From: Polyangiales bacterium
GTDB taxonomy: Bacteria > Myxococcota_A > Polyangia > Polyangiales > JADJQN01
DNA: 64,000 bases
Assembly: GCA_964202905.1 (NCBI GenBank)
Contig: CAXNJO010000003.1
Location: forward strand, 480,001 to 544,000
Direction: 5' to 3'
Below, one piece after another: positions 10,010-62,131 of the stretch. Below the pieces are notes generated by a model that worked only from the letters and a program-made list of their open reading frames with translations, did not search any database and was not told the origin of the DNA. A program made the position numbers and the translations under genes. Positions within the stretch are counted from its first letter, which is position 1. Each line of letters begins with the position of its first letter.

Positions 10010-10654
10010 TCAGCCCTCGAGCGGGAACGCGACGAGCACGACGACGTTCCACACGAGGTGCGCGACGAGCGGGGGCACGAGGCTCCCCGACCCCTCACGC
10101 AGCAACCCCCACGCGAGCCCGCACGCGAGCGCCACGAGCGCCAGCGTGGGCGCGCCGAGCGGCAGCAGCACCAGCCCGTACACGAGCGCGCACGCGCCGA
10201 GCCCCACCACGCGCCCGAAGCGCCGCACGAGCGCGGCATGCACCACCCCGCGCCACACGAGCTCTTCGCCGACGATCACGGGCAGGACCGCCAGCGCCGC
10301 GGTCGCGGGCGAAGGCCCACGGAAGGCCGCGTACAGCGCCGCCGTGTCATGCGCGACGAAGGGCGCGAAGCGCGCGATCGTCGGGTAGAGCAGGTGGGTC
10401 GCGCAGGCCATCGCGACGCCCACCCCCGCCCCGAGGAGCACGAGCGGGCCGCTCGGCCGCGCGACGGCGCGCATCGCGGGACCCTCGATCGCGAACGCCG
10501 CCGCGCCGAGCACGAGCGCCGCGCTGCCGACGGCGAGCCACATGCCGATGGGCCGCGCCGCCGCGACCGCCACCAGCCAGACGAGCACGGACGCGCCCGC
10601 GAGCGCTTCGTCACGCCGTACGCGGGGGTCGCGCGCGGCCACCCCCTCGCTCAT
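10010..10654 (-). CDS. CPBP/Abi (CAAX-like) intramembrane glutamic endopeptidase
   Basis: EELVWRG and AHLVWN motifs, multi-TM. Confidence 0.88.
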
Positions 10655-11622
10655 GCGCCCCCCGAGACGCGGCCGCGGGCCCGCTCGACCGCGCCCCAGG
10701 CGCCGCCGACCGGCCCACGCGCAGCCTCCGCGCCGAGCGCGCGCCGCGCCGCCTGCGTGAAGCTGAGCCGGGTCGGATGCCCGATCAGCGTCCAGAAGCG
10801 CGCGTCCTCCGCGAGCAGGTCCTCGGTGAGCCCGACGACCACCTCACGCGCGACCGACCACTCGGCGCGCGTCACGAAGCGCACCCACAGCGACGAGAGC
10901 CGCGGCGTCAGCAGCGGCACCGCGATCATCCGCGGACTCACGAGGCCCATCACGCGCGACGTCGCCTCGAGGATCTCGCGCCCCGAGAGAATGTCGGGAC
11001 CGGGCAGGTCGTACACGCCATCGGCGCCCGGCGGCAGATCGAGCGCCCGCACGAGCGCGACGACGATGTCGTCGATCGCCACCGGCTCCGTCCGCGAGCG
11101 GAGCCAGCGCGGCAGCACCATCACCGGGAGCCGCGCCGCGAGGTCGCGCACGATGAGCCAGCTGAGGCTCCCATCGCCGACGATCATGCTCGCCCGCAGC
11201 TCCACGACGGGCACCGCGCCGGCGCGCAGCACCTCACCCACGTCGCGCCGGCTGCGGAGATGCGCAGAGCCCTCGCCCTGGGGCGCGACGCCGCCGAGGT
11301 AGACGATCCGCGCGACGCCGGCCGCGCGCGCGGCCGCCGCGAACGTCTCGGCGGCCTCGACCTCGCGCCGGTGGTAGTCGTGGCCCTCGCCCATCCCGTG
11401 CACCAGGTAGAGCGCCGCGCCGCATCCCTCGAGCGCACGCGCGCACGCGTCGCGGTCGCCGACGTCACCTTGCACCCAGTCGCGCCCCGGCATCCGCTGC
11501 CGCGCCCGCTCGGCGTCGCGCGTGAGCGACCGGACCGTCCAGCCCGCCTCGACGAGCGCAGGCCAAACGGCGCGGCCGACGAAGCCCGTCGCACCGGTGA
11601 GCAGGAGCGTTCTTGGTGGCAT
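10651..11622 (-). CDS. NAD(P)H-binding atypical SDR / epimerase
   Basis: TGATGFVG Rossmann motif, [22 protein letters not shown] at 11622. Confidence 0.88.
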
Positions 11623-12681: not shown

Positions 12682-12798
12682 CGAGGCCTCCATGACGGCG
12701 TCCGCGTGCATCCGACGCGGGGCGGCGGTCGCGTTCGAACTACGCCCGCCACGCGCCGCTGCACGTCCGCGCGCGCGTTCCATGCGATGCTCGCGCCG

Positions 12799-13056
12799 AT
12801 GACGACCCCCGCTGACCTCGAGGCGGCCGTGCGCCGCGTGAACGCGCTCTCGCAGGCCCCGAGCACCGGCGACATGCTCGCGCTCTACGGCCTCTACAAG
12901 CAGGCCACGGCGGGGGACGCGGGCAGCACGCGCCCCGGCATGTTCGACCTGAAGGGCCGCGCCAAGTACGACGCCTGGGCGACGCACCGCGGGCTCGACG
13001 CCGAAGCCGCCCGCGCGGCCTACGTCGCCCTCGTCGATCGCCTCGCGGGGCGCTGA
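12799..13056 (+). CDS. Acyl-CoA-binding protein (ACBP)
   Basis: LYGLYKQATAGD...RPGMFDLKGRAKYDAW signature. Confidence 0.93.
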   Translation: MTTPADLEAAVRRVNALSQAPSTGDMLALYGLYKQATAGDAGSTRPGMFDLKGRAKYDAWATHRGLDAEAARAAYVALVDRLAGR

Positions 13057-13132
13057 CGCCGCGCTGGCCCGCACCGCCCGGCGTCGGCGCGCGCCACCTC
13101 CGCGCGCCCACTCCGCGCGCTCAGCCGCGCGC

Positions 13133-13504
13133 TCAGCCGCCCTGCAGGAACAGCGCGACGCAGCAGCCGATCCCGCCCGTCCAGAGCGCGGTGCGGAGCA
13201 GCGCGGCGTCCGCGAGGTACGCGACGAGGTAGCCCACACGCAGCCCGACGAACGCGAGCGCGAGCGCGTCGACGCGGCCCATCGGCGCGTGCGTCTGGTG
13301 CGCGACGAGCACCGCGGCCGCGAACAACGGGAACGCCTCGAAGCCGTTCGCCTGCGCGGCGTTCGCGCGGCGGCGCCAGCCCTCCTGGCGCGCGAGCCAA
13401 TCACGCGGGTTGCTGTTGTCGAAGCGCGAGCCCGCCTTGGCGATGCCCGTCGCGATGTAGGGCAGAAGTCCTGCAACCAGGATGCACCAGTAACCGATCG
13501 TCAT
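13133..13504 (-). CDS. MAPEG family membrane protein
   Basis: DNSNPR, RRANAAQANGFEAFPLFAAAV, RVGY; ATG at 13504. Confidence 0.9.
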   Translation of the reverse strand: MTIGYWCILVAGLLPYIATGIAKAGSRFDNSNPRDWLARQEGWRRRANAAQANGFEAFPLFAAAVLVAHQTHAPMGRVDALALAFVGLRVGYLVAYLADAALLRTALWTGGIGCCVALFLQGG

Positions 13505-13581
13505 CACGCCTCCGCGCTCCGCAGCGCGCGGAGCGCCGCGACCCTGCCACGGAAACCGCCCCGGCGACGCCGAGAAGCGCC

Positions 13582-13813
13582 ACGCACGACGCCGAGTCAG
13601 CGTGAAAGACCCAGCACTCGCGCCGGGATGTCGCGCTGAATCAAGGAGGCGCCCGCAGCCGGGCTCGGGGCCCGGCGAGGACGCACGACGCCGAGTCAGC
13701 GTGAAAGACCCAGCACTCGCGCCGGGATGTCGCGCTGAATCAAGGAGGCGCCCGCAGCCGGGCTCGGGGCCCGGCGAGGACGCACGACGCCGAGTCAGCG
13801 TGAAAGACCCAGC
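13582..13813. repeat. Intergenic 99-bp perfect tandem repeat (~2.3 copies) with imperfect inverted ends; REP/MITE-like
   Basis: Unit ACGCACGACGCCGAGTCAGCGTGAAAGACCCAGC... starts at 13582, 13681 and 13780. Confidence 0.9.
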
Positions 13814-13820
13814 GAGCGCG

Positions 13821-15056
13821 TCAGCCGTCGCTGACCATGTCGCCGAGTTCTTCCCCACTTTGCACGAAGAAGGCCTGCCCGTACGAGTCGAGCAGCTCGA
13901 GCGCCATGTCCATGTCCTCGCGCGTGTGGCCGCGCGTGACGTTCACGCGGAGGCGCTCTTCGCCCTTCTTCACGCCGGGATACGTGATCGGCACCATCAT
14001 CACGCCGCTCTCGAGGAGCGCGATGTGCATGAAGAGCGCCTTGCGCTCGTCGCGGCACATCACGGGCATGATGTGCGTGTCGCTCATGCCGAGGTGGAAG
14101 CCGAGCTCGCCGAGGCGACGCCGCATGTAGCCGGCCTTCTCGTGCAACTCCGCGACGAGCGCCGGGCCCTCTTCTTCGAGCATCGTCAGGATCGTCGACG
14201 CCGCCGCGACGATCGGCACGGGCAGCGACGCCGAGAAGAGGAACGAGCGCGCGTAGTGCTTCACGTGGTCGACGACCTCGCGCGAGCCGAGCAGCACGCC
14301 GCCGATGCCGCCGAAGGTCTTCGAGAAGGTCGTGACGACGACCGGCACGCGCCCCTCGAGCCCGAGGTGCTCGGCGAGCCCGCGTCCGTGCGTGCCGAGC
14401 GTCCCCGAGCCGTGCGCGTCGTCGCACACGACGACCGCGTCGTAGCGGTCGCACACCTCGAGGATCTCGGCGAGCTTCGCCATGTCGCCGTCGAGCGAGT
14501 AGATGCCCTCGATCATGACGAGCGCGTTCTTGCGCTCCTTCGTCTTGAGGATGCGCTCGAGCGACTTCACCGAGTTGTGGTTGAAGAAGCGGACCTCCGG
14601 CTGCCGCGTGGGCGTGCCTGCCGCGAGGAAGGTCCCGTCGAGGATGCAGGCGTGCGAGAGGTTGTCGAGGACGATGGTCGTGTCCTGATCGGCGAGCGCC
14701 ATGATGGTGCCGACCATCGCTTGGTAGCCGGTCGTGAAGATCAGCGCCTCTTCGAAGCCGAAGTACTGCGCGAGCCGCTCTTCGAGCTCGACGTGGGCGG
14801 TCGTCGTGGCCTGCACGCGCGACGACGAGAGGCCCGTCGAGAAGCGGTCGATGGCGGCCTTCGCGGCCTCCTTCACCTTCGGGTGGTTGGTGAGCCCGAG
14901 GTAATCGTTGGAGCTGAAATTGACGATGGGTTTGCCGCCGATCGTCGTGTGCAGCCCGCCCGTCTCGAAGGGACGGAAGTACGGGTAGACCTGCTTCTCG
15001 CGCGCCTCGCGGATGCGGGCGAGTTCCTGGTGGGCCTTGTCGTCGATCCAGCTCAT
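13821..15056 (-). CDS. PLP-dependent alpha-oxoamine synthase, serine palmitoyltransferase-like
   Basis: YPYFRP N-terminus, NFSSNDYLG, SHACI, DDAHG, TTFSKT (PLP Lys), SFLFSASLP, RLRVN. Confidence 0.85.
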   Translation of the reverse strand: MSWIDDKAHQELARIREAREKQVYPYFRPFETGGLHTTIGGKPIVNFSSNDYLGLTNHPKVKEAAKAAIDRFSTGLSSSRVQATTTAHVELEERLAQYFGFEEALIFTTGYQAMVGTIMALADQDTTIVLDNLSHACILDGTFLAAGTPTRQPEVRFFNHNSVKSLERILKTKERKNALVMIEGIYSLDGDMAKLAEILEVCDRYDAVVVCDDAHGSGTLGTHGRGLAEHLGLEGRVPVVVTTFSKTFGGIGGVLLGSREVVDHVKHYARSFLFSASLPVPIVAAASTILTMLEEEGPALVAELHEKAGYMRRRLGELGFHLGMSDTHIMPVMCRDERKALFMHIALLESGVMMVPITYPGVKKGEERLRVNVTRGHTREDMDMALELLDSYGQAFFVQSGEELGDMVSDG

Positions 15057-16267
15057 GGGTGTCTCTCAGCAGTGGAGGCGCGTCCCAGCACGACGGCCGA
15101 GACGTTGCCGTAGAAGCCAACCGTCGTGACGACGACGTGCTCGAGTCGCGCGCGCGGGCGGCCGCAGAGCACGGGCTCGACGGGCGCGCCGTCGAGCCAC
15201 GCGAGCGCCGTGGCGAGGCCGAAGGCGCCTGCCGCGCCGAAGGTCTCGCCGCAGTAGGCCTTGGGCGCGGCGCAGAGCACGTCCGGGTGCAGCGCACGCC
15301 CGATCCCGACGAGCTCCGCGGCGTCGAAGCGCTCGAGACCGCTCGCGGCACACACGACCGCGTCGATGTCGCCGGCGCCGAGCCCCGCGTCACGCACGGC
15401 CGCGCGGATCGCCCGCGCGACACCATCGACGGAGGGGTGCACGATGAGCGCCTCGCTCTCGGGCGCGGTGAAGGCCGTGCCGTAGCCGAGGAGCCTCCCG
15501 CGGATGCGGGCCCCGCGCGCGCGCGCGTCCGCCGGTCGCTCGACGACGACGTACGCCGCGCCTTCGCCGACCCGCATGCCGTGGCCGTGCGACTCGCCCG
15601 GCGCCCACGGCCCGTCGCCTTCGGAGACGAGCTCGAGCTTGCGGAGCGCGCGGTAGAGCGGCTCGCTCACGACCTCGCCGCCGCCGACGAGGAAGACGTC
15701 CGCGCGCTCGTGCGCGAGGTGCGTCTCGGCCGTCAGCACCGCGTCGAGCGCGCCGCAGTTCCCATCGACGATCGTGACGTTGGGCGCCCGCAGGTCCTCC
15801 CAGATCGACACGTAGCCCGCGGCCGCGTTGACGACGGTGTTCGGGAAGCGCGCGGGGTTGATGTAGCGGGGGTCCTCGCGCTCGGCGACGAGGTTCAGCT
15901 CGGTGATCGCGTCGAGCGAACCGTACGCGGTCGCCGAGATGATCCCGACCTCCTCGGGCCGACGCGCGATCCACGCGCCGTCGCGCTTGAGCCCCGCGTC
16001 CTCGAGCGCCTGCTTCGCCGCGACGATCAGGAACTTCGTGAGCCGGTCGAAGTTGCGAAGCCCCTTGTCGCCGAGATAACGCGCCGCGTCAAAGCCACGC
16101 ACCTCCGCGATGCGCGCCTGCGGGAGCTCGGCGGCGGGCAGCGCCGTGACGGGCCCGTCGAACGCGCGCGCCGCCGCGAGGCTCGGATCCGCGAGCGCCT
16201 CGCGGTGCGCCGCGGCTCCGACGGCGAAGGGCGCGACGACGCCGAGGCCGGTGATGGCGAGCTCCAT
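15053..16267 (-). CDS. Beta-ketoacyl synthase-like chain-length factor (catalytically inactive KS)
   Basis: KS fold (ITGLG, FPNTVVNAAAG, VGEGAA) but the Cys/His/His positions read N/A/E; coupled to both neighbours. Confidence 0.82.
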   Translation of the reverse strand: MELAITGLGVVAPFAVGAAAHREALADPSLAAARAFDGPVTALPAAELPQARIAEVRGFDAARYLGDKGLRNFDRLTKFLIVAAKQALEDAGLKRDGAWIARRPEEVGIISATAYGSLDAITELNLVAEREDPRYINPARFPNTVVNAAAGYVSIWEDLRAPNVTIVDGNCGALDAVLTAETHLAHERADVFLVGGGEVVSEPLYRALRKLELVSEGDGPWAPGESHGHGMRVGEGAAYVVVERPADARARGARIRGRLLGYGTAFTAPESEALIVHPSVDGVARAIRAAVRDAGLGAGDIDAVVCAASGLERFDAAELVGIGRALHPDVLCAAPKAYCGETFGAAGAFGLATALAWLDGAPVEPVLCGRPRARLEHVVVTTVGFYGNVSAVVLGRASTAERHP

Positions 16268-17511
16268 CAGCGCCTCCCCACGGTGTCGGGGAGCACGCCC
16301 TCGCGCGCGAGCAGGAGCACCGCGTCGTAGCCGCCGAAAGCGAGCGCGTTGTTGAGCACGACGTCGACCTTCGCCGTGCGCGCCGCGCCGACGACGAGGT
16401 CGAGCGCGCAGTCGGGATCGGGCGTCTCGTAGCCGAGCGTCGGCGGGAGGATCCCCGTCGCGATCGACTCCACGCACGACACCGCCTCGAGCGCGCTCGC
16501 CGCGCCCATGCAGTGGCCGATCATGCTCTTCATCGAGCTGATCGGGACGCTGCGCGCGCGGTCGCCGAAGACCTTGTGCATCACGAGCGCCTCGACCTTG
16601 TCGTTGGCGTCGGTGCCGGTGCCGTGCGCGTTGACGAAGTCGACGTCCTCGGCGCGCAGGCCGCTCGCCTCGATCGCGCGGCGCATCGCCTGCACGGAGC
16701 CCTCGCCCTCCGGGTGCGGCCGCGTGATGTGGTGCGCGTCGCAGGCGAGGCCGTAGCCGCCGATCTCCGCGAGGATCCGCGCGCCGCGGGCGCGGGCGTG
16801 GTCCTCAGACTCGATCACCATCATGCCGGCGCCCTCGCCGACGAGCAGCCCCTTGCGGTTCAGGTCGAAGGGCTGGCAGCGCTCGGGCGCGATCGCGCCG
16901 AGCCGCGCGAACCCCGCGAACTGCAGCTTCTCGATGATCTCGCTCGCGCCCGTGATCGCGACGTCGGCGCGGCCCGCGCGGATCTGATCGGCCGCGAAGC
17001 CGATCGCGTAGTTGCCCGCGGCGCACGCGGCCGGCAGCGTCTGCGTCATGCCGTGCGCGCCAAACGCGCGCGCGACGTGGATCGGCAGCAGCGTGGTGCC
17101 GTAGCGGTTGATCGTGCGGCTCTTCACGGCCTCTTCGCCGCGGTGGATCCACGCCGACTCGAGCTCGCTGATGACGTCGGCCTCGCCCATCGTGGTGCCG
17201 ATGATGACGGCCGTGCGCTCGGTCGCGAGGAGCCGCGCGGGGATGCCGGCGTCCTCGACGGCCATGCGCGCGGCGGCGACCGCGAACTGCGAGCAACGCC
17301 CCATGCGCCGCGCCTCGGCCGCGGTCATCCAGTCCCGCGCGCGGAAACCCTTGACCTCGCAGGCGATCGAGCGGCCGATGGTGCCGGTGTCGAAGCCCTC
17401 CACGGGGGACGCGCCGCTCCGACCTGCGGCGAGCGACTCCCAGAAGGCCCGACGCCCGAGGCCGATGGAACTCACGGCCCCGAGCCCCGTCACGAAGACA
17501 CGGCGGCTCAT
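16267..17511 (-). CDS. fabF: Beta-ketoacyl-ACP synthase II-like (FabF/KS-alpha)
   Basis: Intact triad AACAAG, NAHGTGT, KSMIGHC; C-terminal AFGG. Confidence 0.9.
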   Translation of the reverse strand: MSRRVFVTGLGAVSSIGLGRRAFWESLAAGRSGASPVEGFDTGTIGRSIACEVKGFRARDWMTAAEARRMGRCSQFAVAAARMAVEDAGIPARLLATERTAVIIGTTMGEADVISELESAWIHRGEEAVKSRTINRYGTTLLPIHVARAFGAHGMTQTLPAACAAGNYAIGFAADQIRAGRADVAITGASEIIEKLQFAGFARLGAIAPERCQPFDLNRKGLLVGEGAGMMVIESEDHARARGARILAEIGGYGLACDAHHITRPHPEGEGSVQAMRRAIEASGLRAEDVDFVNAHGTGTDANDKVEALVMHKVFGDRARSVPISSMKSMIGHCMGAASALEAVSCVESIATGILPPTLGYETPDPDCALDLVVGAARTAKVDVVLNNALAFGGYDAVLLLAREGVLPDTVGRR

Positions 17512-17679
17512 GAATGAGCCGCGCGTTGTACCCCGCGCGCGCGCAGCAGCGCAAGGCGACGCCCAGCGTCATCGGGCGCGGCGCACACCCCGTCCGCGCG
17601 CGCGCCGCACCGCCCGCGGACCACGCCCGACGCACGGCCCCCGCGACGCGCACCCCCGCGACGCGCTACCCTCGACGCC

Positions 17680-18672
17680 GTGACGCGACGCACCGGCCGC
17701 TCCTTCGCGCTGCTCTCCGTCTGCGTTCTGCTCGCGGGCGGCTGTGCCGTCGCCCGCGGAGGGCTGTTCGGCGCGGCGGCGCCCGACGCAGGCCAGCGCG
17801 ACGCCGGCGACGCCACCGACCTCGGCACCGAAGACGCCGGCGACGCGACCGACCTCGGCAACGCAGACGCCGGCGACGCCACCGACCTCGGCAACGCAGA
17901 CGCCGGCGACGCGACCGACCTCGGAACACCCGACCTCGGAACACCGCTCTGCGACCCCGAGCTCTGCCCCGGGCGCGTCTGCGTCGCGGGCGCATGCGGC
18001 TTCGCGACGAGCTGCGCCGCGCTGCTCGCGGCCGTCCCGCGGCTGCCGGACGGCGCCTACACCCTCGACGGAGATGGTCCCGGCGAACTACTCCCCGCAG
18101 ACGCCTGGTGCGACATGAGCACCAACGGCGGCGGCTGGACGCTCGTGCTGAAGGCCGATGGCGCCCTCGCGACGTTCTCGTACGACGCGGCCGCGTGGAC
18201 GGACGACACCGAGTTCGGTGACGCCGCGATCGACGGCATCGAAGCGAAGCTCCGCAGCTACCGGACGGTCGCCTTCACCGCGCTGCGTCTCGTGCTCGTG
18301 ACGGGCGCGGAGCGACGCGCCGTCGAGCCGATCGTCGACGGCGCCAGTGCGCGCGCGCTCTTCGCGGGCCCCACGCGCGACACGGGCCTCTCGCGCGACA
18401 CATGGCTCAGCCTCGTGCCCGGCAGCGCGCTGCAGGACGACTGCAACGACGAGGGCATCAACGTCGTTCCCGCCGCCGGCTTCGCCCGTGTGCGGATCGG
18501 CATCGTCGCGAACAACGAGCGCAACTGCTACACGCCCGACTCGCGGGTCGGCCTCGGCGGCGCGGGCGGCGCCGACCCGCTCACCGTCGGCAACGTGAAC
18601 CCCGACGTCGGGTGGACGTGGGGCGACGAATCGCGCCGCAGCGCGTCGTTCGCCTACCTGTTCGTGCGCTGA
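17680..18672 (+). CDS. Lipoprotein with fibrinogen-like C-terminal domain
   Basis: Lipobox AGGC; DGAYTLD...WCDMSTNGGGWTLV fibrinogen-related motif; acidic repeat linker. Confidence 0.8.
   Translation: MTRRTGRSFALLSVCVLLAGGCAVARGGLFGAAAPDAGQRDAGDATDLGTEDAGDATDLGNADAGDATDLGNADAGDATDLGTPDLGTPLCDPELCPGRVCVAGACGFATSCAALLAAVPRLPDGAYTLDGDGPGELLPADAWCDMSTNGGGWTLVLKADGALATFSYDAAAWTDDTEFGDAAIDGIEAKLRSYRTVAFTALRLVLVTGAERRAVEPIVDGASARALFAGPTRDTGLSRDTWLSLVPGSALQDDCNDEGINVVPAAGFARVRIGIVANNERNCYTPDSRVGLGGAGGADPLTVGNVNPDVGWTWGDESRRSASFAYLFVR
17800..17946 (+). repeat. Intragenic 33-bp tandem repeat x4 (DAGDATDLGxx) plus 15-bp duplication
   Basis: GACGCCGGCGACGCSACCGACCTCGG at 17800, 17833, 17866 and 17899. 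Confidence 0.9.
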
Positions 18673-18713
18673 CGCCGCGCGGAACGGGCCGTGATGTTCC
18701 GCGCCGCGGCACC

Positions 18714-18741
18714 TTGACACCCCCGACGCGCCCCGTACAAA
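18714..18741 (+). promoter_or_regulatory. Putative sigma70 promoter of the FAAL operon
   Basis: TTGACA-N16-TACAAA ending 9 nt before the ATG; no Shine-Dalgarno. Confidence 0.5.
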
Positions 18742-18750
18742 GCGCGCCGC

Positions 18751-20466
18751 ATGGCCCCCTCCGACGCGCCGCTCACGCTCGTCTCCGCGATGTCGAGGCT
18801 CCGCCGCGGGCCGGGTCGCGGCTTCCGCTTCGTCACGACGAAGGGCGAGGAGCGCTTCTACGCGTACGAGGCGCTCGAGGCCGAGGCGCACCGCCGCGCC
18901 GCGCACCTCGCGTCGCTCGGCCTCGCGAAGGGCGACCGACTCGCGATCGTCGTCGCCGAGGGCGACGAGTTCGTGCTCTCGTTCCTCGGCGCCTGCGTCG
19001 CGGGCGTCGTGCCCGTCCCCATCTATCCGCGCGCGACCTTCAAGGGCATCGAGGGCTACGCCGACACGGTCGCGCACATCGCGCGCGCCTCGGGCGCCCG
19101 CGTCCTGCTCACGATGGAGGCGACGCGGCCCTACGTGGAGCCGGCGCTCGCGAAGGACTGCGGGCTCGAGCGCGTCGTGCTCACCGAGCAGGTCTTCGCG
19201 GGTGAGGCGCCGGCCTTCACGCCGCCCGCGATCACACCGGAAGACCTCTGCTTCCTCCAGTTCACCTCGGGCTCGACCAGCCAGCCCAAGGGCGTGGTCG
19301 TCACGCACGCGAACCTCGTCGCGAACGCCACGGCCTTCCTCGGGCCCGCGGGACTCGACCGCAACGACGACGACCTCGGCGTCTCGTGGCTGCCGCTCTT
19401 CCACGACATGGGGCTCATCGGCTTCGTGCTCGGCACGCTCGTCTGCGACATCCCCGTCGTGTTGCTGCCGACCTCGACCTTCGCCCGCGGTCCGCGCATC
19501 TGGCTCGAGACCATCCACAAGCACCGCGGCACCATCACCTACGCCCCGAACTTCGCGTACGCGCTCGCGGTCAAGCGGCTCAAGGACCGCGACCTCAAGG
19601 ACCTCGACCTCTCGTGCCTGCGCATCGCGGGCTGCGGCGCCGAGCCGATCCACGCGCAGACCATGCGGGACTTCGCCGAGCGCCTCGCGCCCGCGGGCTT
19701 CGACGCGCGCGCCCTGCTGCCGAGCTACGGCATGGCCGAGGCGACGCTCGCGATCACCTTCCATCCGCGCGGCACGCCGCTCCTCACCGACACCGTCGAT
19801 CCCGAGGCGATGAAGCGCGGCGAGGCGCGCCCCGTCCCGCCCGGCACGCCCGGCGCGCTCGAGCTCGTCGCGTGCGGCGTGCCCTTCCCCGAGCACGGTC
19901 TGCGCATCGTCGACACCGAGACGGGCGAGCCCCTCGGCGAGCGCCGCGTGGGCCAGATCGTCAACATCGGACCGTCGGTCACGGGCGCCTATTTCCAGAA
20001 CCCCGAGGCCACCGCGCTCGGCTGGAAGGACGGCTGGCTCCAGACGGGCGACCTCGGCTACGTCGCCGACGGCGCGCTCTACATCTGCGGTCGCCTCAAG
20101 GACCTCATCATCATCCACGGCGCGAACTACTACCCACAGGACATCGAGTGGGCCGTGCAGGACATCGAGGGCGTGCGCCGCGGGAACGTCGTCGCCTTCA
20201 GCGTGCTGCGCGACGGCGTCGAGCAGCTCGTCGTCGCGGCGGAGGCCAACTCGGGCGACCTGGAGCGCCTGAAAAAAGCCATCCCCGAGCGCGTCTACGA
20301 AGCCGCCGGCCTCGCGACCTCGCACGTCGCGATCGTCGGTGTCGGTACGCTGCCGAAGACCTCGAGCGGCAAGGCGCAGCGCCTGAAGACGAAGCGCCTC
20401 TACGAGGACGGCCTGCTCGCCGAGCACGGCAGCGGGCGTGTGGCCGAGGGCGGCGAGGCCGACTGA
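18751..20466 (+). CDS. Fatty acyl-AMP ligase (FAAL)
   Basis: FLQFTSGSTSQPKG, SWLPLFHDMGLIG, PNFAY, SYGMAEATL followed by a FAAL-type insertion, GRLKDLII, LPKTSSGK. Confidence 0.92.
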   Translation: MAPSDAPLTLVSAMSRLRRGPGRGFRFVTTKGEERFYAYEALEAEAHRRAAHLASLGLAKGDRLAIVVAEGDEFVLSFLGACVAGVVPVPIYPRATFKGIEGYADTVAHIARASGARVLLTMEATRPYVEPALAKDCGLERVVLTEQVFAGEAPAFTPPAITPEDLCFLQFTSGSTSQPKGVVVTHANLVANATAFLGPAGLDRNDDDLGVSWLPLFHDMGLIGFVLGTLVCDIPVVLLPTSTFARGPRIWLETIHKHRGTITYAPNFAYALAVKRLKDRDLKDLDLSCLRIAGCGAEPIHAQTMRDFAERLAPAGFDARALLPSYGMAEATLAITFHPRGTPLLTDTVDPEAMKRGEARPVPPGTPGALELVACGVPFPEHGLRIVDTETGEPLGERRVGQIVNIGPSVTGAYFQNPEATALGWKDGWLQTGDLGYVADGALYICGRLKDLIIIHGANYYPQDIEWAVQDIEGVRRGNVVAFSVLRDGVEQLVVAAEANSGDLERLKKAIPERVYEAAGLATSHVAIVGVGTLPKTSSGKAQRLKTKRLYEDGLLAEHGSGRVAEGGEAD

Positions 20467-20586
20467 TCGGGCGGGCCGCGCGCCGCGGTCCGGGCGTGCT
20501 TTCAAGCGGCGGGCGGTTATGCTCGGCCGCGCTGCGCGACCACCCGGACGCGCGGAGATGTCCGCGAAAATCAGGGAGACGAGAAG

Positions 20587-20835
20587 ATGGACCGCCCCGA
20601 GCTACTCAAGACGTTCCAGCGCATGGCGACCGAGATCGCCGAGAAGGACTTCGGCCACGTCACCGAAGAGCACGTGATCGCGGACCTCGGCATCGACTCC
20701 CTCGGCATGCTCGAGCTCGTCGGCTCGATGGAGCGCGAGCTGAAGATCGCGGTCCCCGACGAGCAGCTCGTCGGCATCCAGACCGTCCGTCAGCTCCTCG
20801 ACCTCGTCGAGAAGCGCACGCGCGCATCGGCCTGA
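20587..20835 (+). CDS. Acyl carrier protein 1
   Basis: DLGIDSL phosphopantetheine site; 82 aa, acidic. Confidence 0.92.
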   Translation: MDRPELLKTFQRMATEIAEKDFGHVTEEHVIADLGIDSLGMLELVGSMERELKIAVPDEQLVGIQTVRQLLDLVEKRTRASA

Positions 20836-20856
20836 GCACTGCAGCGAGGGGGTCCC

Positions 20857-21675
20857 ATGGCGTCCGACCAGTTCCACGAGAAGCTCTACAAGAACTTCAC
20901 GACCTTCTTCGACAAGGCGGAGCAGGAGCGCCGCTGGAACCCGTACCGCGACGTCCCCTGGGATCGCATCAACCCCGAGACGCCCGCCTTCGTCGCCACC
21001 TGCGCGGAGACCTTCCTCGGCGTCGAGAGCTTCCTGCCCGACTACATCCGCAAGGGCCTCGAGGTCGTGCGGGCGTCGTCGTGGGCGCAGCGCTCGTTCG
21101 CGGCGAACTGGGGCTACGAGGAGCTCAAGCACTCGGTCGCGCTGATGGAGTACCTCCTCCGCTCGGGCAAGCGCACGCAAGAGCAGATGTTCGACTTCCA
21201 GGCGAAGCTGATGACCGAAGAGTGGCGCCGCCCCTTCGACACCGCGCGCCAGATGACCATCTACGGCAGCTTCCAGGAGATGGCGACCTTCGTCATCTAC
21301 CTGCGCCACGAGGCGCTCGCCAAGCAGTACAACGACGACGCGCTCGCGGCTGTGTACCGCTTCAACGCGCGTGACGAGATCGCCCACGCGCGCTTCTACG
21401 AGGACATCGTGAAGGTCTATCTCGAGGAGGACCGCGAGGGCACGCTCCGCGACATCGCGCACGTCGCGAAGAACTTCGAGATGCCCGGCATCGGCATCGT
21501 CCCGGACTACGACGCCCGCATCGAGCTGATGCGCGAGCACGGCCACGTCGACCGCGACATCTTCCTTCAAAAGGTCTATTTCCCCGTCCTCAAGTACCTC
21601 GGCGTGACCCGCCAGGAGCTCGTCGAGGTCGCGCGCCGCGAGCGCGACGAGCGCCGCGCGTCCGCCGCGCAGTGA
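20857..21675 (+). CDS. Soluble di-iron (ferritin-like) acyl-ACP desaturase
   Basis: Ligand pattern E (GVES), ExxH (YEELKH), E (FQE), ExxH (RDEIAH); FEMPG. Confidence 0.85.
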   Translation: MASDQFHEKLYKNFTTFFDKAEQERRWNPYRDVPWDRINPETPAFVATCAETFLGVESFLPDYIRKGLEVVRASSWAQRSFAANWGYEELKHSVALMEYLLRSGKRTQEQMFDFQAKLMTEEWRRPFDTARQMTIYGSFQEMATFVIYLRHEALAKQYNDDALAAVYRFNARDEIAHARFYEDIVKVYLEEDREGTLRDIAHVAKNFEMPGIGIVPDYDARIELMREHGHVDRDIFLQKVYFPVLKYLGVTRQELVEVARRERDERRASAAQ

Positions 21676-21697
21676 TCCCCCCGATCGGAGCACGAGC

Positions 21698-21940
21698 ATG
21701 AGCGCCGAATTGAAAGAGAGCCTCCGCCGCATCGTCGCCGACGTGAGCGAGGTCGACGAGATCCCCGACGACACCGACTTCCGCGAGCTCGGCATCGACT
21801 CGATGATGGGCATCGAGATCGTCGCGGAGATCGAGCGTACGTACAAGATCTCCGTCCCGGAGAGCGAGCTGAAGAACATGACCTCGCTCACCCGCGTGTA
21901 CGAGCTCGTGCAGACGCACCTCGCGGCCGCGGCGGGCTGA
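21698..21940 (+). CDS. Acyl carrier protein 2
   Basis: ELGIDSM phosphopantetheine site; 80 aa, acidic; GGAG RBS. Confidence 0.92.
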   Translation: MSAELKESLRRIVADVSEVDEIPDDTDFRELGIDSMMGIEIVAEIERTYKISVPESELKNMTSLTRVYELVQTHLAAAAG

Positions 21941-21947
21941 GCCCGCG

Positions 21948-22373
21948 GTGCTCGGCACGCGCGACGGTCGCCCGGCGTACACGCACGCGGTCCGCGTCGC
22001 CTACGTCGACACCGACGCCGCCGGCGTGGTGCACCACTCGCAGTACTTCCGCTATCTCGAGCAGGGCCGCGTCGAGCTGATGCGCGCGGTGGGCGTCGAT
22101 TACCTCACGTTCGAGCGCACGCGCGGCCTCGCGTTGCCCGTCGTCGAGGCCCGCCTCCGCTACCGCGCGCCCGCGCGCTTCGACGATCTGCTCGCGCTCG
22201 AGACCTGGCTCACCGAGGGCTCCCGCGCGAAGCTCGTGTTCGCGAGCGTGCTGCGCCGTGCAGCCGACGACGCCGTGCTCCACGAGGCGAGCGTCACCCT
22301 CGCGTGCGTGACGATGCCGGCCGGCACGATCTGCAGCGTGCCGACGGACCTGCGCGAGCGGCTCGGCGCCTGA
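21948..22373 (+). CDS. Hot-dog acyl-thioesterase (YbgC/FadM/4HBT family)
   Basis: VRVAYVDTDAAGVVHHSQY...EQGR, YRAPARFDD. Confidence 0.9.
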   Translation: MLGTRDGRPAYTHAVRVAYVDTDAAGVVHHSQYFRYLEQGRVELMRAVGVDYLTFERTRGLALPVVEARLRYRAPARFDDLLALETWLTEGSRAKLVFASVLRRAADDAVLHEASVTLACVTMPAGTICSVPTDLRERLGA

Positions 22374-53897: not shown

Positions 53898-56435
53898 TCA
53901 CTCGCCGTCGGACGACCAGCTGGCCGCCCCATCGTCTTGCCACGCCGCTTCCGGCTCGGCGCCGTCGTCACCTGTCACGTCCGACCAGCCAGCAGCGGAC
54001 ACCTCGGGCAGCCCGAACGGCAAGGGTTCGGTGCTCCCGACCAGCACGCGCGGCGGCGGCGGCTCGGCGCCCTCACGGTGAAAAGCGAGCACATCGATCT
54101 CGGCGAGCCCGGCCGCGAGCGCGACCTCGTCGATCCGTCCCCGCGACGCCAGACGCCGCAGGAACCCTCGCAGTCGGTCGCGCAGCCGCGGCGACGGTTC
54201 GCCGTCCTCGTACGCCTGATGGAACAGCTTCGGGCTCGGCAGAATCATCGCGAGAAAGGCGCTCTCGCCGACGGACAGTTCGCGCGGTTCACGGCCGAAG
54301 TAATGCGACGCCGCGCTGCGAACGCCATAGATCGCCGGGCCGTACTCGATCACGTTGAGATACAGCTCGAGAATCTTCTCCTTGTCGAGGACACGCTCGA
54401 TCCACCAGGTGAGCAGCACCTCCTGCACCTTGCGGGCGAGCGTCTTTTCTCGATGCAGAAACACGTTCTTCACGAGTTGCATCGTGATCGTGCTCGCCCC
54501 TTGTACGTAACGGCCGGCGCGCAGGTTCCGCACGAGCGCGACCTGGATCTCCGAAGGCGCAAAGCCGTGATGCCGGAGAAACCCTCCATCCTCGTGGGCC
54601 ATCACCGCATGCGGGAGAAACGGGCTGATCTCCGAGATCGGTGTCCACGCCGCGGAACCCGGTCCCGTCTCGAACACGAACTCCGTGTCGTCCGGCTCAA
54701 CGACCCGGTGCTCGAACGGCCGAGTGAAACGGCGGAGATCGGCCAGCATCGGGACAGCCTCGAACTCGCAGTCGTCGTCGACGTGGACCTCCACCTTCGT
54801 CGCCTCGAGGTCTGCTGCGTCGACATGGACCCGGAGGCGTCCGGCCAACGTCCCGGCGAGCCGGAAGCCCGCCAAGTCGGCCAGCAGATCCGCAGGGATC
54901 GCGCCCACAGCGACACCGCACGGCGTCGTCGGAAGCGTCGCGTTCACGTCGACGAGGTATCCGCTGGAGCCCCACTCGAGCGCACCGTCGAGCGCCACCG
55001 CGACGGAACCTCCGGAGGCTGGACCTGCCCCGTCCAGCGAAAGTCGCGCCCCATGGACTTCGAGCCGACGGCGCGACGGCACGAACGACGCGCGTCCCGA
55101 TATGCCGACCGCGAGTCCACGCACGGGAGCCGGCGCGATCCGCGACGACTCGAGCACAGCACCGCTCACGTCGACGTTGCCCGCCAGTGAGAGGCGGTCG
55201 AGGCCCTCCGCGCGGACGGCGACGTCCGCATCGACACGTGCCGCGCCCGCGTGGAGGGACGTCAACGTGGGGAAAAAAGGGAGGAACATCGCAAGCGGGA
55301 GGCGGACCATCCGCACGGCGCCCTCACCCCGCAATTCCGACGGTCGGACCTCGAGGTCCCAATGAAGCATTCCGGAGGGCACGCCCGTGCCGGTCCCCCA
55401 GGTGCGGAACACGTTCCCGGGCTCTCGAACGATGGCTCCGTGGAGTCGACGAACCACGTCCGATTCGCCCATCGGCCCGCGGTTCGCGACGACGACGTCA
55501 CCGACCCAAAACCTGGCCCGGTCGGCCACGTGCGCGAGCCATCTGCCCGCCGCGCTCTCGTCCGCCGGCATCGAGTGCGCTGCGGTCGCGCTTGCTCGGG
55601 GGACTGCCGCGAGAACGCCCCGTCCGAATGCAATCCGAAGACGCTCGCGAGTCGAGGCAGCGGATGACCCGGTCGGTGGGGCCCCATCCTCGGATGCGCC
55701 CGCTACCACACGTCCAGAGCGCACGGAAACCATCCCCAGTTGCCACAGCCCCGCTTCCCGTGAGAGCGCCACGTCGAGCCCAGCGCACGTCCAGCGCTCG
55801 CTGTCTTCTCCGCCAACATCCAAGCGCGACACGCTCATCGCGAGCGTCGATGCATTCGACACGATCCGCGCGCCATCGAACGACACCAACAGACCGGACT
55901 CGTCGCGAACCTGCCCGGCAAGCCGCTCCACGCGAACGGAGCGCGAAACGTTACGCCGCCCGGCGTCCGCGCGATTGCGCTCACGCAGACCTTCCATCCA
56001 GCGCTGGAACCCCGGCGCGGACACGTTCACGTCCGCATCGACACCTTCGACCCGCGCGGAGCGACAGGCGGAGCCCCCCTGCCAAAGCCAGGTCACGGGC
56101 GAACAATCCATAGCCACGCGCTCGACACGCAAGCGCACTCCCTCGTTCTCTCCCGCAACAACGAGCCCCTCGAGCTCCACGCGGCCAAGCGCCACATGCG
56201 CGAGCGACACTGAAGCGCCCACGTGAAGCCGCTTCACCAGTGCACGTTCGGCGTACCGTCGCACGACCTCAGGCAGCGCGAAACGCCACAGCGCCCCGAC
56301 CAGCACCGACACGGCGACGACGGCGAACAGAACACGCTTGGCACGCTCGGACCGCACGACCCGTCGGGATGTAGCACGACGGGATTCTCGCGCCGCGATG
56401 CAAACGCCCAAACACGACTCCGATGAGCTCGGCAT
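53898..56435 (-). CDS. Monofunctional peptidoglycan transglycosylase (GT51) with long N-terminal beta-rich region
   Basis: EDGGFLRHHG, GASTITMQLVKN, RKVQE, KEKILELYLN; no transpeptidase domain. Confidence 0.85.
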   Translation of the reverse strand: MPSSSESCLGVCIAARESRRATSRRVVRSERAKRVLFAVVAVSVLVGALWRFALPEVVRRYAERALVKRLHVGASVSLAHVALGRVELEGLVVAGENEGVRLRVERVAMDCSPVTWLWQGGSACRSARVEGVDADVNVSAPGFQRWMEGLRERNRADAGRRNVSRSVRVERLAGQVRDESGLLVSFDGARIVSNASTLAMSVSRLDVGGEDSERWTCAGLDVALSREAGLWQLGMVSVRSGRVVAGASEDGAPPTGSSAASTRERLRIAFGRGVLAAVPRASATAAHSMPADESAAGRWLAHVADRARFWVGDVVVANRGPMGESDVVRRLHGAIVREPGNVFRTWGTGTGVPSGMLHWDLEVRPSELRGEGAVRMVRLPLAMFLPFFPTLTSLHAGAARVDADVAVRAEGLDRLSLAGNVDVSGAVLESSRIAPAPVRGLAVGISGRASFVPSRRRLEVHGARLSLDGAGPASGGSVAVALDGALEWGSSGYLVDVNATLPTTPCGVAVGAIPADLLADLAGFRLAGTLAGRLRVHVDAADLEATKVEVHVDDDCEFEAVPMLADLRRFTRPFEHRVVEPDDTEFVFETGPGSAAWTPISEISPFLPHAVMAHEDGGFLRHHGFAPSEIQVALVRNLRAGRYVQGASTITMQLVKNVFLHREKTLARKVQEVLLTWWIERVLDKEKILELYLNVIEYGPAIYGVRSAASHYFGREPRELSVGESAFLAMILPSPKLFHQAYEDGEPSPRLRDRLRGFLRRLASRGRIDEVALAAGLAEIDVLAFHREGAEPPPPRVLVGSTEPLPFGLPEVSAAGWSDVTGDDGAEPEAAWQDDGAASWSSDGE

Positions 56436-56619
56436 GGGTCTTTGGGGAATCGTGAGGCCGACCTACGTTTTTACGGGTTGACGGCAACCGTCTCGTGGGG
56501 CCGCGCACTGTCGCGCCCCCCGCGTCACGCCGCGGCGACCAAAGCACGCGCGCGGAACGCAGACCAATGCGGAGGGCCAGCGACGCGGACCGTCCGCAGA
56601 TTCCGCGGACGGAATAAGT

Positions 56620-56651
56620 GAACCCCGCCTCCAGTAAAGGAGACGGGGTTC
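56620..56651 (-). terminator. Hairpin terminator downstream of 5S rRNA
   Basis: GAACCCCGTCTCC-TTTACT-GGAGGCGGGGTTC followed by ACTTATT; a second GC hairpin at ~56590-56612. Confidence 0.7.
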
Positions 56652-56657
56652 GAAGAA

Positions 56658-56775
56658 AACCCGGCAGCGTCCTACTCTCCCACACACTTACGCGTGCAGT
56701 ACCATCGGCTCTGGAGGGCTTGACTTCCGAGTTCGAGATGGGATCGGGTATGGCCCCTCCGACATTGCCGCCGGA
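56658..56775 (-). rRNA. rrf: 5S rRNA
   Basis: CCGATCCCATCTCGAACTCGGAAGTCAAG, GATGGTACTG and GGGAGAGTAGG motifs; ends approximate. Confidence 0.95.
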
Positions 56776-56933
56776 AGAAGTGGAAGTGTCCGCTCGCTCC
56801 GCGTGCGTCGCACGACGGAATTGACAGCGCCGAATTTGTGTTTCCGGGGCTGGGCGGCGAGCGCTCGGCACCCTGAGGTGTCCGCGCGACGCTCTTACTC
56901 CCAACCCTGGACTCGAGTTCGATGTTTGCCTTA

Positions 56934-59958
<3,025 letters not shown>

Positions 59959-60210
59959 TACCCCTAAGGCACGCATCGATGACTCGAATCCAGGGTTCGT
60001 CGCAAGAGCAGAAGCCTTGCCAAACCCGGACCGACATCATCGGCGCAATTCGTCTACGAGAAAAAAACACTTCCACGTATTAAATTTTCAGTAGGCACAC
60101 TGGACAGAGTCCAGGCTTGGAGGCCGGTCGCCTCGTTCGGTACCTCGAGCGCTGCTCGAGACATCGAACCAAGAGACCGACTGGCCGGCAGCGAACCTGC
60201 GGGCATGCGG

Positions 60211-60283
60211 TGGAGCTGATCGGGATCGAACCGATGACCCCCGGCTTGCAAAGCCGGTGCTCTCCCAGCTGAGCTACAGCCCC
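60211..60283 (-). tRNA. tRNA-Ala(TGC)
   Basis: GGGGCTGTAGCTCAG...TTGCAA...GTTCGATCC; G3:U70 pair; CCA not encoded. Confidence 0.95.
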
Positions 60284-60344
60284 TCGTGAGCTCGAACTCA
60301 GCGACACCTGCAGGGAGGCCGCTACCCAGCGAAGCCGGGTCCGG

Positions 60345-60418
60345 TGGGCCACGCTAGACTTGAACTAGCGACCTCACGCTTATCAAGCGTGCGCTCTAAC
60401 CAGCTGAGCTAGTGGCCC
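60345..60418 (-). tRNA. tRNA-Ile(GAT)
   Basis: GGGCCACTAGCTCAG...TTGATAA...GTTCAAGTC; CCA not encoded. Confidence 0.95.
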
Positions 60419-60564
60419 GTTATACGACAGGGCTCGCTCTGCTATTTGTGCCGTAGATTCTCAGAGAGCACCGCTTGCGGGCGGCACGACTCCTCAAAAC
60501 TGAGCCGGAGTTCCATTGGATGAGCGGGTATGACCGAGCTCCCTGTACCGAGGTACGGGGAATG

Positions 60565-62131
<1,567 letters not shown>

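Follow-up and report, generated by a model that had tools for sequence, protein, structure and literature searches.

The window analysed here, a 64,000-nucleotide stretch of a Polyangiales bacterium genome (assembly GCA_964202905.1, contig CAXNJO010000003.1, positions 480,001 to 544,000), carries at positions 13821 to 22373 a cluster of genes for a fatty acyl-AMP ligase (FAAL), two acyl carrier proteins (ACP1 and ACP2), an acyl-ACP desaturase, a thioesterase, an active ketosynthase (KS), a catalytically dead KS (chain-length factor, CLF) and an alpha-oxoamine synthase (AOS). The cluster probably makes the tailored long-chain-base backbone of membrane ceramides, with the AOS acting as serine palmitoyltransferase (SPT). 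The observations behind this reading are the gene content and catalytic residues, the position of the AOS in phylogenetic trees, the co-conservation of the genes, the mutual exclusion of the divergent AOS and canonical SPT, and the presence of a ceramide synthase homolog not linked to the cluster. A preliminary description of this DNA had proposed an unsaturated long-chain base or signal lipid as the product, and a long-chain base remains our best guess.

The AOS (411 aa, positions 13821 to 15056, minus strand) is encoded by a stand-alone open reading frame (ORF) and, going by its cofactor and serine-pocket residues, its place in the tree and its predicted fold, is likely to do the job of SPT in the cell. 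Residues N50, S79, H135, S187, D212, H215, T243, S245, K246 and R370 are retained; H135, D212, H215, S245, K246 and R370 were found in 53/53 aligned orthologs and T243 in 49/53, giving a fold-type I pyridoxal phosphate core. All seven SPT serine-pocket residues named in the available text of PMC10196870 (N52, S81, H138, S185, T241, S243 and K244) are kept. The divergent AOS enzymes formed a tight clade (100/100), which branched with the SPTs at 100/98 in a 29-row tree without the long-branch row L156 and at 93/97 in an earlier tree that included it and from which 16 of 66 rows had been dropped. SPT was represented by E. coli Spt, which is annotated spt, and by enzymes of Parabacteroides and Rubrobacter that were called SPT from their neighbours; BioF and Kbl were the other reference groups. 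Approximately unbiased (AU) tests rejected grouping of the AOS with BioF (p 0.018) and with Kbl (p 0.0017), bearing out the preliminary description, and did not reject its nesting with the canonical SPT of Polyangiales (p 0.066). The predicted structure (pLDDT 93.5) matched best to the Sphingobacterium SPT 3A2B, with a Z score of 54.6 and a root mean square deviation (rmsd) of 1.2 over 388 residues, compared with Z 51.9 and rmsd 2.0 for Kbl, Z 48.2 for E. coli BioF and Z 47.5 for the CFAT of Alistipes.

The divergent AOS and the canonical enzyme were found to be mutually exclusive. In a phylum sample of 49 same-order genomes and 252 others, the 11 same-order genomes without a divergent AOS, together with genomes G013 and G032, carry a relative at 38 to 42% identity, for which the Bacteroidota SPT model gives the highest score. 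When the canonical enzyme was used as query against 161 genomes of the order, 28 gave a match at 70% or more, each only once, 116 (including one unpublished genome, G370) matched only at 36 to 42%, and 17 gave none, although a second match near the threshold could be missed, since 2 of these 17 do carry the divergent enzyme. CLF orthologs were present in 24/38 divergent-AOS genomes versus 0/11 canonical-SPT genomes, the 14 divergent-AOS genomes without CLF all belonging to one genus; because related genomes are not independent, these counts reflect few events. The canonical enzyme adjoins a homolog of the bacterial ceramide synthase bCerS in 5/9 fetched loci. The window's own genome (G000; 5.7 Mb, 94% complete) also encodes a bCerS homolog, at C1:770853-771977, which matches E. 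coli YghO at 34% identity (E value of 4e-60), and such homologs were found in 38/41 genomes of the order set (G000 and 40 relatives) and in 5/5 further genomes. In genome G124 only two oxoamine synthases were seen, the divergent AOS and a BioF beside bioD, and bCerS was kept. If the replacement is real, surveys that count canonical SPT alone would miss such sphingolipid producers. A separate observation concerns one canonical-SPT genome, in which FAAL, methyltransferase, ACP and FabF-like KS genes stand in a row at G257:C11:4223500-4227800 (L284) in the absence of CLF or AOS.

The distribution of the cluster fits a core function. An AOS ortholog was found in 38/49 same-order genomes and in 0/252 others; within the order set, 36/41 genomes have one at 73% identity or more, two of them partial, and there is one further broken copy at 56%. 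The closest relatives of the AOS, at 93% and 85% identity, are titled Sandaracinaceae. We collected 80 AOS loci, of which 53 with at least 7.5 kb of upstream flank were treated as informative. KS and CLF were present together in 46 of these 53, and the five genes for KS, CLF, FAAL, ACP1 and ACP2 in 32. ACP2 lies upstream of the AOS in 50, while the thioesterase was found at 12 and the desaturase at 3. The gene set is retained even in the 1.8-Mb, single-contig genome G124 (96% complete). The conservation pattern would suit core metabolism and not a secondary metabolite, and the cluster looks like order-wide housekeeping membrane-lipid synthesis, given its presence across the order and its retention at 1.8 Mb. 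The preliminary description had instead envisaged a dedicated pathway; the desaturase and thioesterase that it listed proved to be optional.

The same loci bear on the possibility that the two arms of the cluster are separate, merely co-located pathways, the plus arm yielding a modified fatty acid freed by the thioesterase and the AOS working alone. The arms do sit on separate contigs in genome G002, and FAAL, desaturase and thioesterase are often absent from the locus. Against this, the arms are linked in 43/53 informative loci, in every one of them divergently, as the co-conservation assumed in the preliminary description would have it; ACP2, a plus-arm gene, is the one partner kept by the AOS where the rest of the cluster is lost (7 loci); and among the 49 same-order genomes CLF occurred solely alongside the divergent AOS. 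We consider separate pathways very unlikely.

All eight genes named in the preliminary description were found intact and in place. On the minus strand, the active FabF-like KS (414 aa, positions 16267 to 17511), the dead KS (404 aa, 15053 to 16267) and the AOS have overlapping stop and start codons and are translationally coupled, again as described. The active KS has intact Cys-His-His motifs (ACAAG, NAHGT and GHCM in the window translation), and the corresponding motifs recur in 63 (Cys), 63 (first His) and 62 (second His) of 63 orthologs. In the dead KS the triad is lost, with N171, A308 and E342 at its positions (numbering of the 405-aa frame 16270-15056), and the CLF tunnel residues Phe, Thr and Val are retained. 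This is the arrangement of a KS/CLF pair, an active KS next to a triad-less homolog, and the two may form a heterodimer. Both proteins found their best PDB sequence match in 9S5H, the active KS with chain 9s5h_B (427 bits versus 332 for the ishigamide KS 6kxd_A) and the dead KS with chain 9s5h_C (147 bits versus 112 for the next). In a fold search, the rows returned for the dead KS were all FabF or Iga11, tied at Z 48 to 52, in a structure library reaching to April 2026 in which 9S5H was unlisted. We infer that 9S5H is the amxFabF2/amxFabF-mut heterodimer of the anammox bacterium Brocadia, since the residue numbers Cys165, His298, His335 and Phe394 agree with those of a preprint (bioRxiv 10.64898/2026.05.19.726425) whose accessible part gives no PDB code. 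According to that part of the preprint, the tunnel of the anammox pair was modelled to fit chains of up to C16.

The plus arm opens with an AasR-like FAAL (571 aa, positions 18751 to 20466), followed by ACP1 (82 aa, 20587 to 20835, PF00550), a soluble, DesA-like di-iron acyl-ACP desaturase (272 aa, 20857 to 21675, PF03405), ACP2 (80 aa, 21698 to 21940, PF00550) and a YbgC/FadM-type hot-dog thioesterase (141 aa, 21948 to 22373, TIGR00051 above cut-off), with intergenic gaps of 120, 21, 22 and 7 nt. The best NCBIfam model of the FAAL is PRK09192, on which it scores 499 bits, under the cut-off of 600, compared with 870 bits for E. coli AasR; it is nonetheless the best match to E. coli AasR in G000 (317 bits versus 105). 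As set out in the available text of PMC9386255, SPT draws on a dedicated ACP that AasR acylates, this AasR-AcpR-Spt route is proven in Caulobacter, and operons of aasR and acpR homologs occur in Sorangium and Myxococcus amid different genes. The preliminary description had not recognised the gene combination as a characterised pathway. This no longer holds for the FAAL, ACP and SPT portion, but it stands for the cluster as a whole, of which no description was found in a literature search whose coverage excluded most subscription papers. Imidacins, which are made with a type I polyketide synthase (PKS; PMC11301661), were considered and rejected as unrelated.

The desaturase carries the ligand motifs EELKH, QE and DEIAH, with two (D/E)ExxH motifs in a ferritin-like domain. 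It was found in 6/41 genomes of the order set, is flanked by ACP1 and ACP2 in each of the 5 that had context, and is absent from the same-genus relative G001. Among 47 close metagenome loci, all 37 with sufficient flank have ACP1 immediately upstream of the desaturase, and 28/39 have ACP2 immediately downstream of it. Fuller copies of the cluster (G015, G019 and 14 metagenome loci, some near-identical) have a short methyltransferase gene of the CMAS family (mycolic-type, S-adenosylmethionine [SAM]-dependent) just upstream of ACP1. Its ortholog in G000 is unlinked (C7:33197-34057, L283), is 71% identical to an L213 ortholog near an ACP1-desaturase pair, and is likely to be an unlinked member of the pathway; the methyltransferase occurs in 25/41 genomes, including all six with the desaturase. 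In L209 and L213, ACP1 and the desaturase lie away from the cluster near the methyltransferase, which in L213 adjoins a gene of the ERG4/ERG24 sterol-reductase family. The thioesterase has a DTDxxGVVHH-type motif in 15/17 orthologs.

These parts can be arranged into a candidate route. The FAAL would load a free fatty acid onto ACP1, the likely loading and tailoring carrier, where the desaturase, if present, would add a double bond that the mycolic-type methyltransferase could convert into a methyl branch or a cyclopropane. The KS/CLF pair would then take the chain from ACP1 and extend it with malonyl-ACP2, and the beta-keto group would be reduced, wholly or partly, by enzymes encoded elsewhere, which is the weakest step. 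From ACP2, its likely feeding carrier, the AOS would condense the acyl chain with L-serine to a 3-keto long-chain base, after which the bCerS homolog would N-acylate the base and a CerR-type reductase would complete the ceramide; the thioesterase may clear stalled carriers. A more specific picture is possible though doubtful, namely that the sphingoid base of most Polyangiales comes from a dissociated assembly line resembling that of mycolic acids. A scavenged fatty acid would receive a double bond and a methyl branch or cyclopropane while bound to ACP1, an anammox-type KS/CLF pair would lengthen it, and the chain would pass in beta-oxidised or 2-unsaturated form to a remodelled SPT. Such a line, if it exists, would lead directly to branched ceramides of the sphingosine type, which would be outer-membrane lipids in cells that often do without lipid A. 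A C9-methyl-C20-sphingosine was reportedly described by Keck in 2011 from an LPS-lacking Sorangium.

Several observations weigh against the ceramide interpretation, beginning with the AOS itself. The SPT loop GSRxxNG is changed to SSSRVQA and Asn117 to Met114 in 53/53 aligned orthologs (S77 is Gly in 2 and V81 is variable), and the pocket residue Gly80 of SPT, Ser in the AOS, is changed in all 53. The AOS reached no NCBIfam SPT cut-off (330, 286 and 231 bits versus 640, 500 and 670), although canonical myxobacterial SPT-type enzymes also fall below the SPT cut-off (445 to 563 bits), and it scored 335 bits on the BioF model, which was its top NCBIfam model by 5 bits. That margin, and a bioB gene (named from our own reading of the sequence) about 5.8 kb from the AOS in nine g11-type loci, would suit an alternative biotin-precursor route, with the AOS as a BioF acting on cluster-built pimeloyl-ACP, or a Kbl. 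A separate bioF beside bioD was found in G000 and in 5/5 small genomes tested, however, G000 has only two other oxoamine synthases, this BioF and a Kbl above cut-off, and the AU tests reject both groupings; we regard the biotin route as close to excluded.

The AOS is also sister to the canonical SPT clade, not inside it, and sits on a long branch, as do the cysteate-using CFATs (PMC13692747), so that use of serine is not assured. Such distinct branches can switch substrate (PMC13692747), and with the altered Gly80 and Asn117 positions this allows for a sphingoid-like base built from alanine, glycine or cysteate and leading to 1-deoxy-ceramides or sulfonolipids. We consider this improbable, as most of the serine-contact residues are retained. 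Cysteate in particular is an unlikely substrate: a cysteate synthase was looked for in G000 and not found (56 bits on TIGR03844 versus a cut-off of 325), the position of CFAT Lys280, mapped by inference through the SPT alignment, is Ala276 as in SPT, and the Alistipes CFAT structure is a poorer match than the SPT (Z 47.5 versus 54.6).

Further counterpoints to ceramide synthesis lie in the genome and in the reduction step. The bCerS homolog is not linked to the cluster, cerR is absent from it, and the CerR candidate of G000 is likewise unlinked (C6:366275-367258) and a weak match (29%). Only 6/41 genomes of the order set yielded an LpxC, and G000 was not one of them; replacement of LPS as the cause was rejected, for in family f17 LpxC occurs in 10/12 divergent-AOS genomes versus 7/11 canonical-SPT genomes and so does not track the AOS type. 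Elongation appears not to be essential, because the 14 genomes of genus g11 carry the AOS but no CLF. Window ORFs with their domain and NCBIfam matches revealed no ketoreductase (KR), dehydratase (DH) or enoylreductase (ER) gene inside the cluster, as the preliminary description had stated, and its suggestion that reduction is borrowed from fatty acid synthesis is now uncertain. G000 has a fabG-acp-fabF operon on contig C13 (gene names from our own reading), but FabA/FabZ-family domains were not found in 16/41 genomes, several of them 95 to 100% complete, and in G000 they occur only inside a PUFA-synthase-like locus, with no stand-alone FabZ found. MaoC-type dehydratase domains were found in 5/5 genomes tested. 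The PUFA-synthase-like locus, with KS and FabA-type domains, lies at G000:C15:9600-25100.

The lack of clustered reductive genes, and of FabZ-type dehydratases in those 16 genomes, would be expected of the main alternative, a dissociated RedL-type chemistry in which an unreduced beta-ketoacyl-ACP2 is joined to glycine or serine by the AOS and yields a cyclised alkyl-pyrrolinone or diketo-amine signal. The FAAL-ACP-KS-ACP-AOS set agrees with the domain order of RedL, and a fused KS-ACP-AOS without KR follows a FAAL-methyltransferase-ACP-desaturase front end like the one described above in distant clusters (L258). This alternative nevertheless leaves unexplained both the exclusion with canonical SPT and the retention of bCerS where no other SPT candidate exists; the g11 AOS (73 to 75% identical) persists with ACP2 in the absence of CLF; and a quick tree placed the fused AOS domains apart from the divergent clade. 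We regard it as unlikely, and ceramide-backbone synthesis remains the preferred reading. The distant clusters deserve mention in their own right: in L241, L248, L250, L252, L253, L258, L262 and L264, genes for FAAL, methyltransferase, ACP and desaturase are followed by a type I KS and AOS region, with fusions seen in L258 (KS-ACP-AOS) and L241 (KS-acyltransferase [AT]-ACP-KR-DH-AOS), the whole resembling a RedL-like system with tailoring genes.

The two arms lie on opposite strands, as described before, but are not directly back to back, since a plus-strand gene at positions 17680 to 18672 intervenes. It encodes a lipoprotein-like protein of 330 aa with a fibrinogen-like YCDxxxxGGGW domain (NF040941), was found between the arms at only 2/80 related AOS loci and in the close metagenome relatives L203 and L205, and is probably outside the pathway. 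Just past the AOS, at window positions 12751 to 13504, are genes for an acyl-CoA-binding protein (PF00887) and a MAPEG-family protein, the latter not found across the 80 related loci, and an NAD(P)-binding short-chain dehydrogenase/reductase (SDR)-like gene 2.2 kb past the AOS (10654 to 11571) is not among the conserved neighbours of AOS loci. Downstream of the AOS (about 13540 to 13790), the translations of two overlapping ORFs contain a duplicated unit of about 35 codons, suggesting a tandem non-coding repeat. The GC content of positions 54000 to 62000 is 55 to 61%, against about 73% elsewhere, which suggests an inserted island or an rRNA region. At many Polyangiaceae-titled and related loci (L023, L029, L043, L049, L053-L058, L066, L069 and L090) the AOS is followed immediately by a third ACP gene, and in 14 loci a putative LpxL-like acyltransferase, identified by our own sequence reading, follows a few genes beyond it.

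Known bacterial sphingolipid routes join a ready-made fatty acid to serine, usually by a one-step enzyme, and the cluster would bring an elongase of its own, and tailoring of the carrier-bound chain, into bacterial sphingolipid synthesis. If our assignment is correct, a second, SPT-like lineage replaces the usual enzyme in most members of an order that is large and mostly uncultured; a second biological setting is gained for the KS/CLF type, of which the anammox member has been characterised only recently; and testable genes can be named for the unusual sphingoid bases of LPS-lacking myxobacteria.

Among known systems, prodiginine synthesis by RedL/RedN and PigJ/PigH also proceeds by FAAL loading, KS extension, ACP hand-over and AOS release, and the window set shares this logic. 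It differs in that its proteins are stand-alone, AT and pyrrole genes are absent, the AOS is sister to SPTs and the distribution is housekeeping-like. Mycobacterial meromycolate tailoring employs AcpM, DesA1/2, CmaA/MmaA/UmaA and KasA/B, with release via Pks13. The window cluster resembles it in its soluble acyl-ACP desaturase, for which DesA2 was the top PDB match (E value of 8e-9, tied with plant enzymes), and in the short CMAS methyltransferase (about 290 aa), which lacks the N-terminal domain of CFA synthase; release would be via the oxoamine synthase instead of Pks13, and identity is low. The highly reducing type II PKS of ishigamide (Iga11/Iga12, PDB 6KXD) ranked second among the sequence matches of the KS (332 bits), but the window has no clustered KR or DH and its cluster is order-wide, not strain-specific. 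The anammox pair amxFabF2/amxFabF-mut is the closest PDB relative of both KS genes if our identification of 9S5H holds; the radical-SAM enzyme, phytoene-dehydrogenase homolog and amxFabZ that the available text places in anammox ladderane cluster I are absent from the cluster genes and their conserved neighbours, the partners here are a FAAL and an AOS, and nothing points to ladderanes. The AasR-AcpR-Spt/CerR/bCerS systems of Caulobacter crescentus and E. coli BL21(DE3), as far as described in the accessible portions of PMC9386255 and PMC11324152, share with the window an acyl-AMP ligase, a dedicated ACP and an SPT-type enzyme, and the FAAL and AOS of the window are the best matches in G000 to E. 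coli AasR and Spt, with a bCerS homolog present. Unlike those systems, the window cluster has a second ACP and a KS/CLF pair, a desaturase and a thioesterase that are both optional, and a methyltransferase that may be linked or unlinked; it contains no cerR, and its AOS lies outside the canonical SPT clade. We see it as a probable new variant of the bacterial ceramide pathway, to whose description the present analysis contributes the optional desaturase, a methyltransferase associated with the cluster, a measure of the exclusion between divergent AOS and canonical SPT, and the match to the anammox type.

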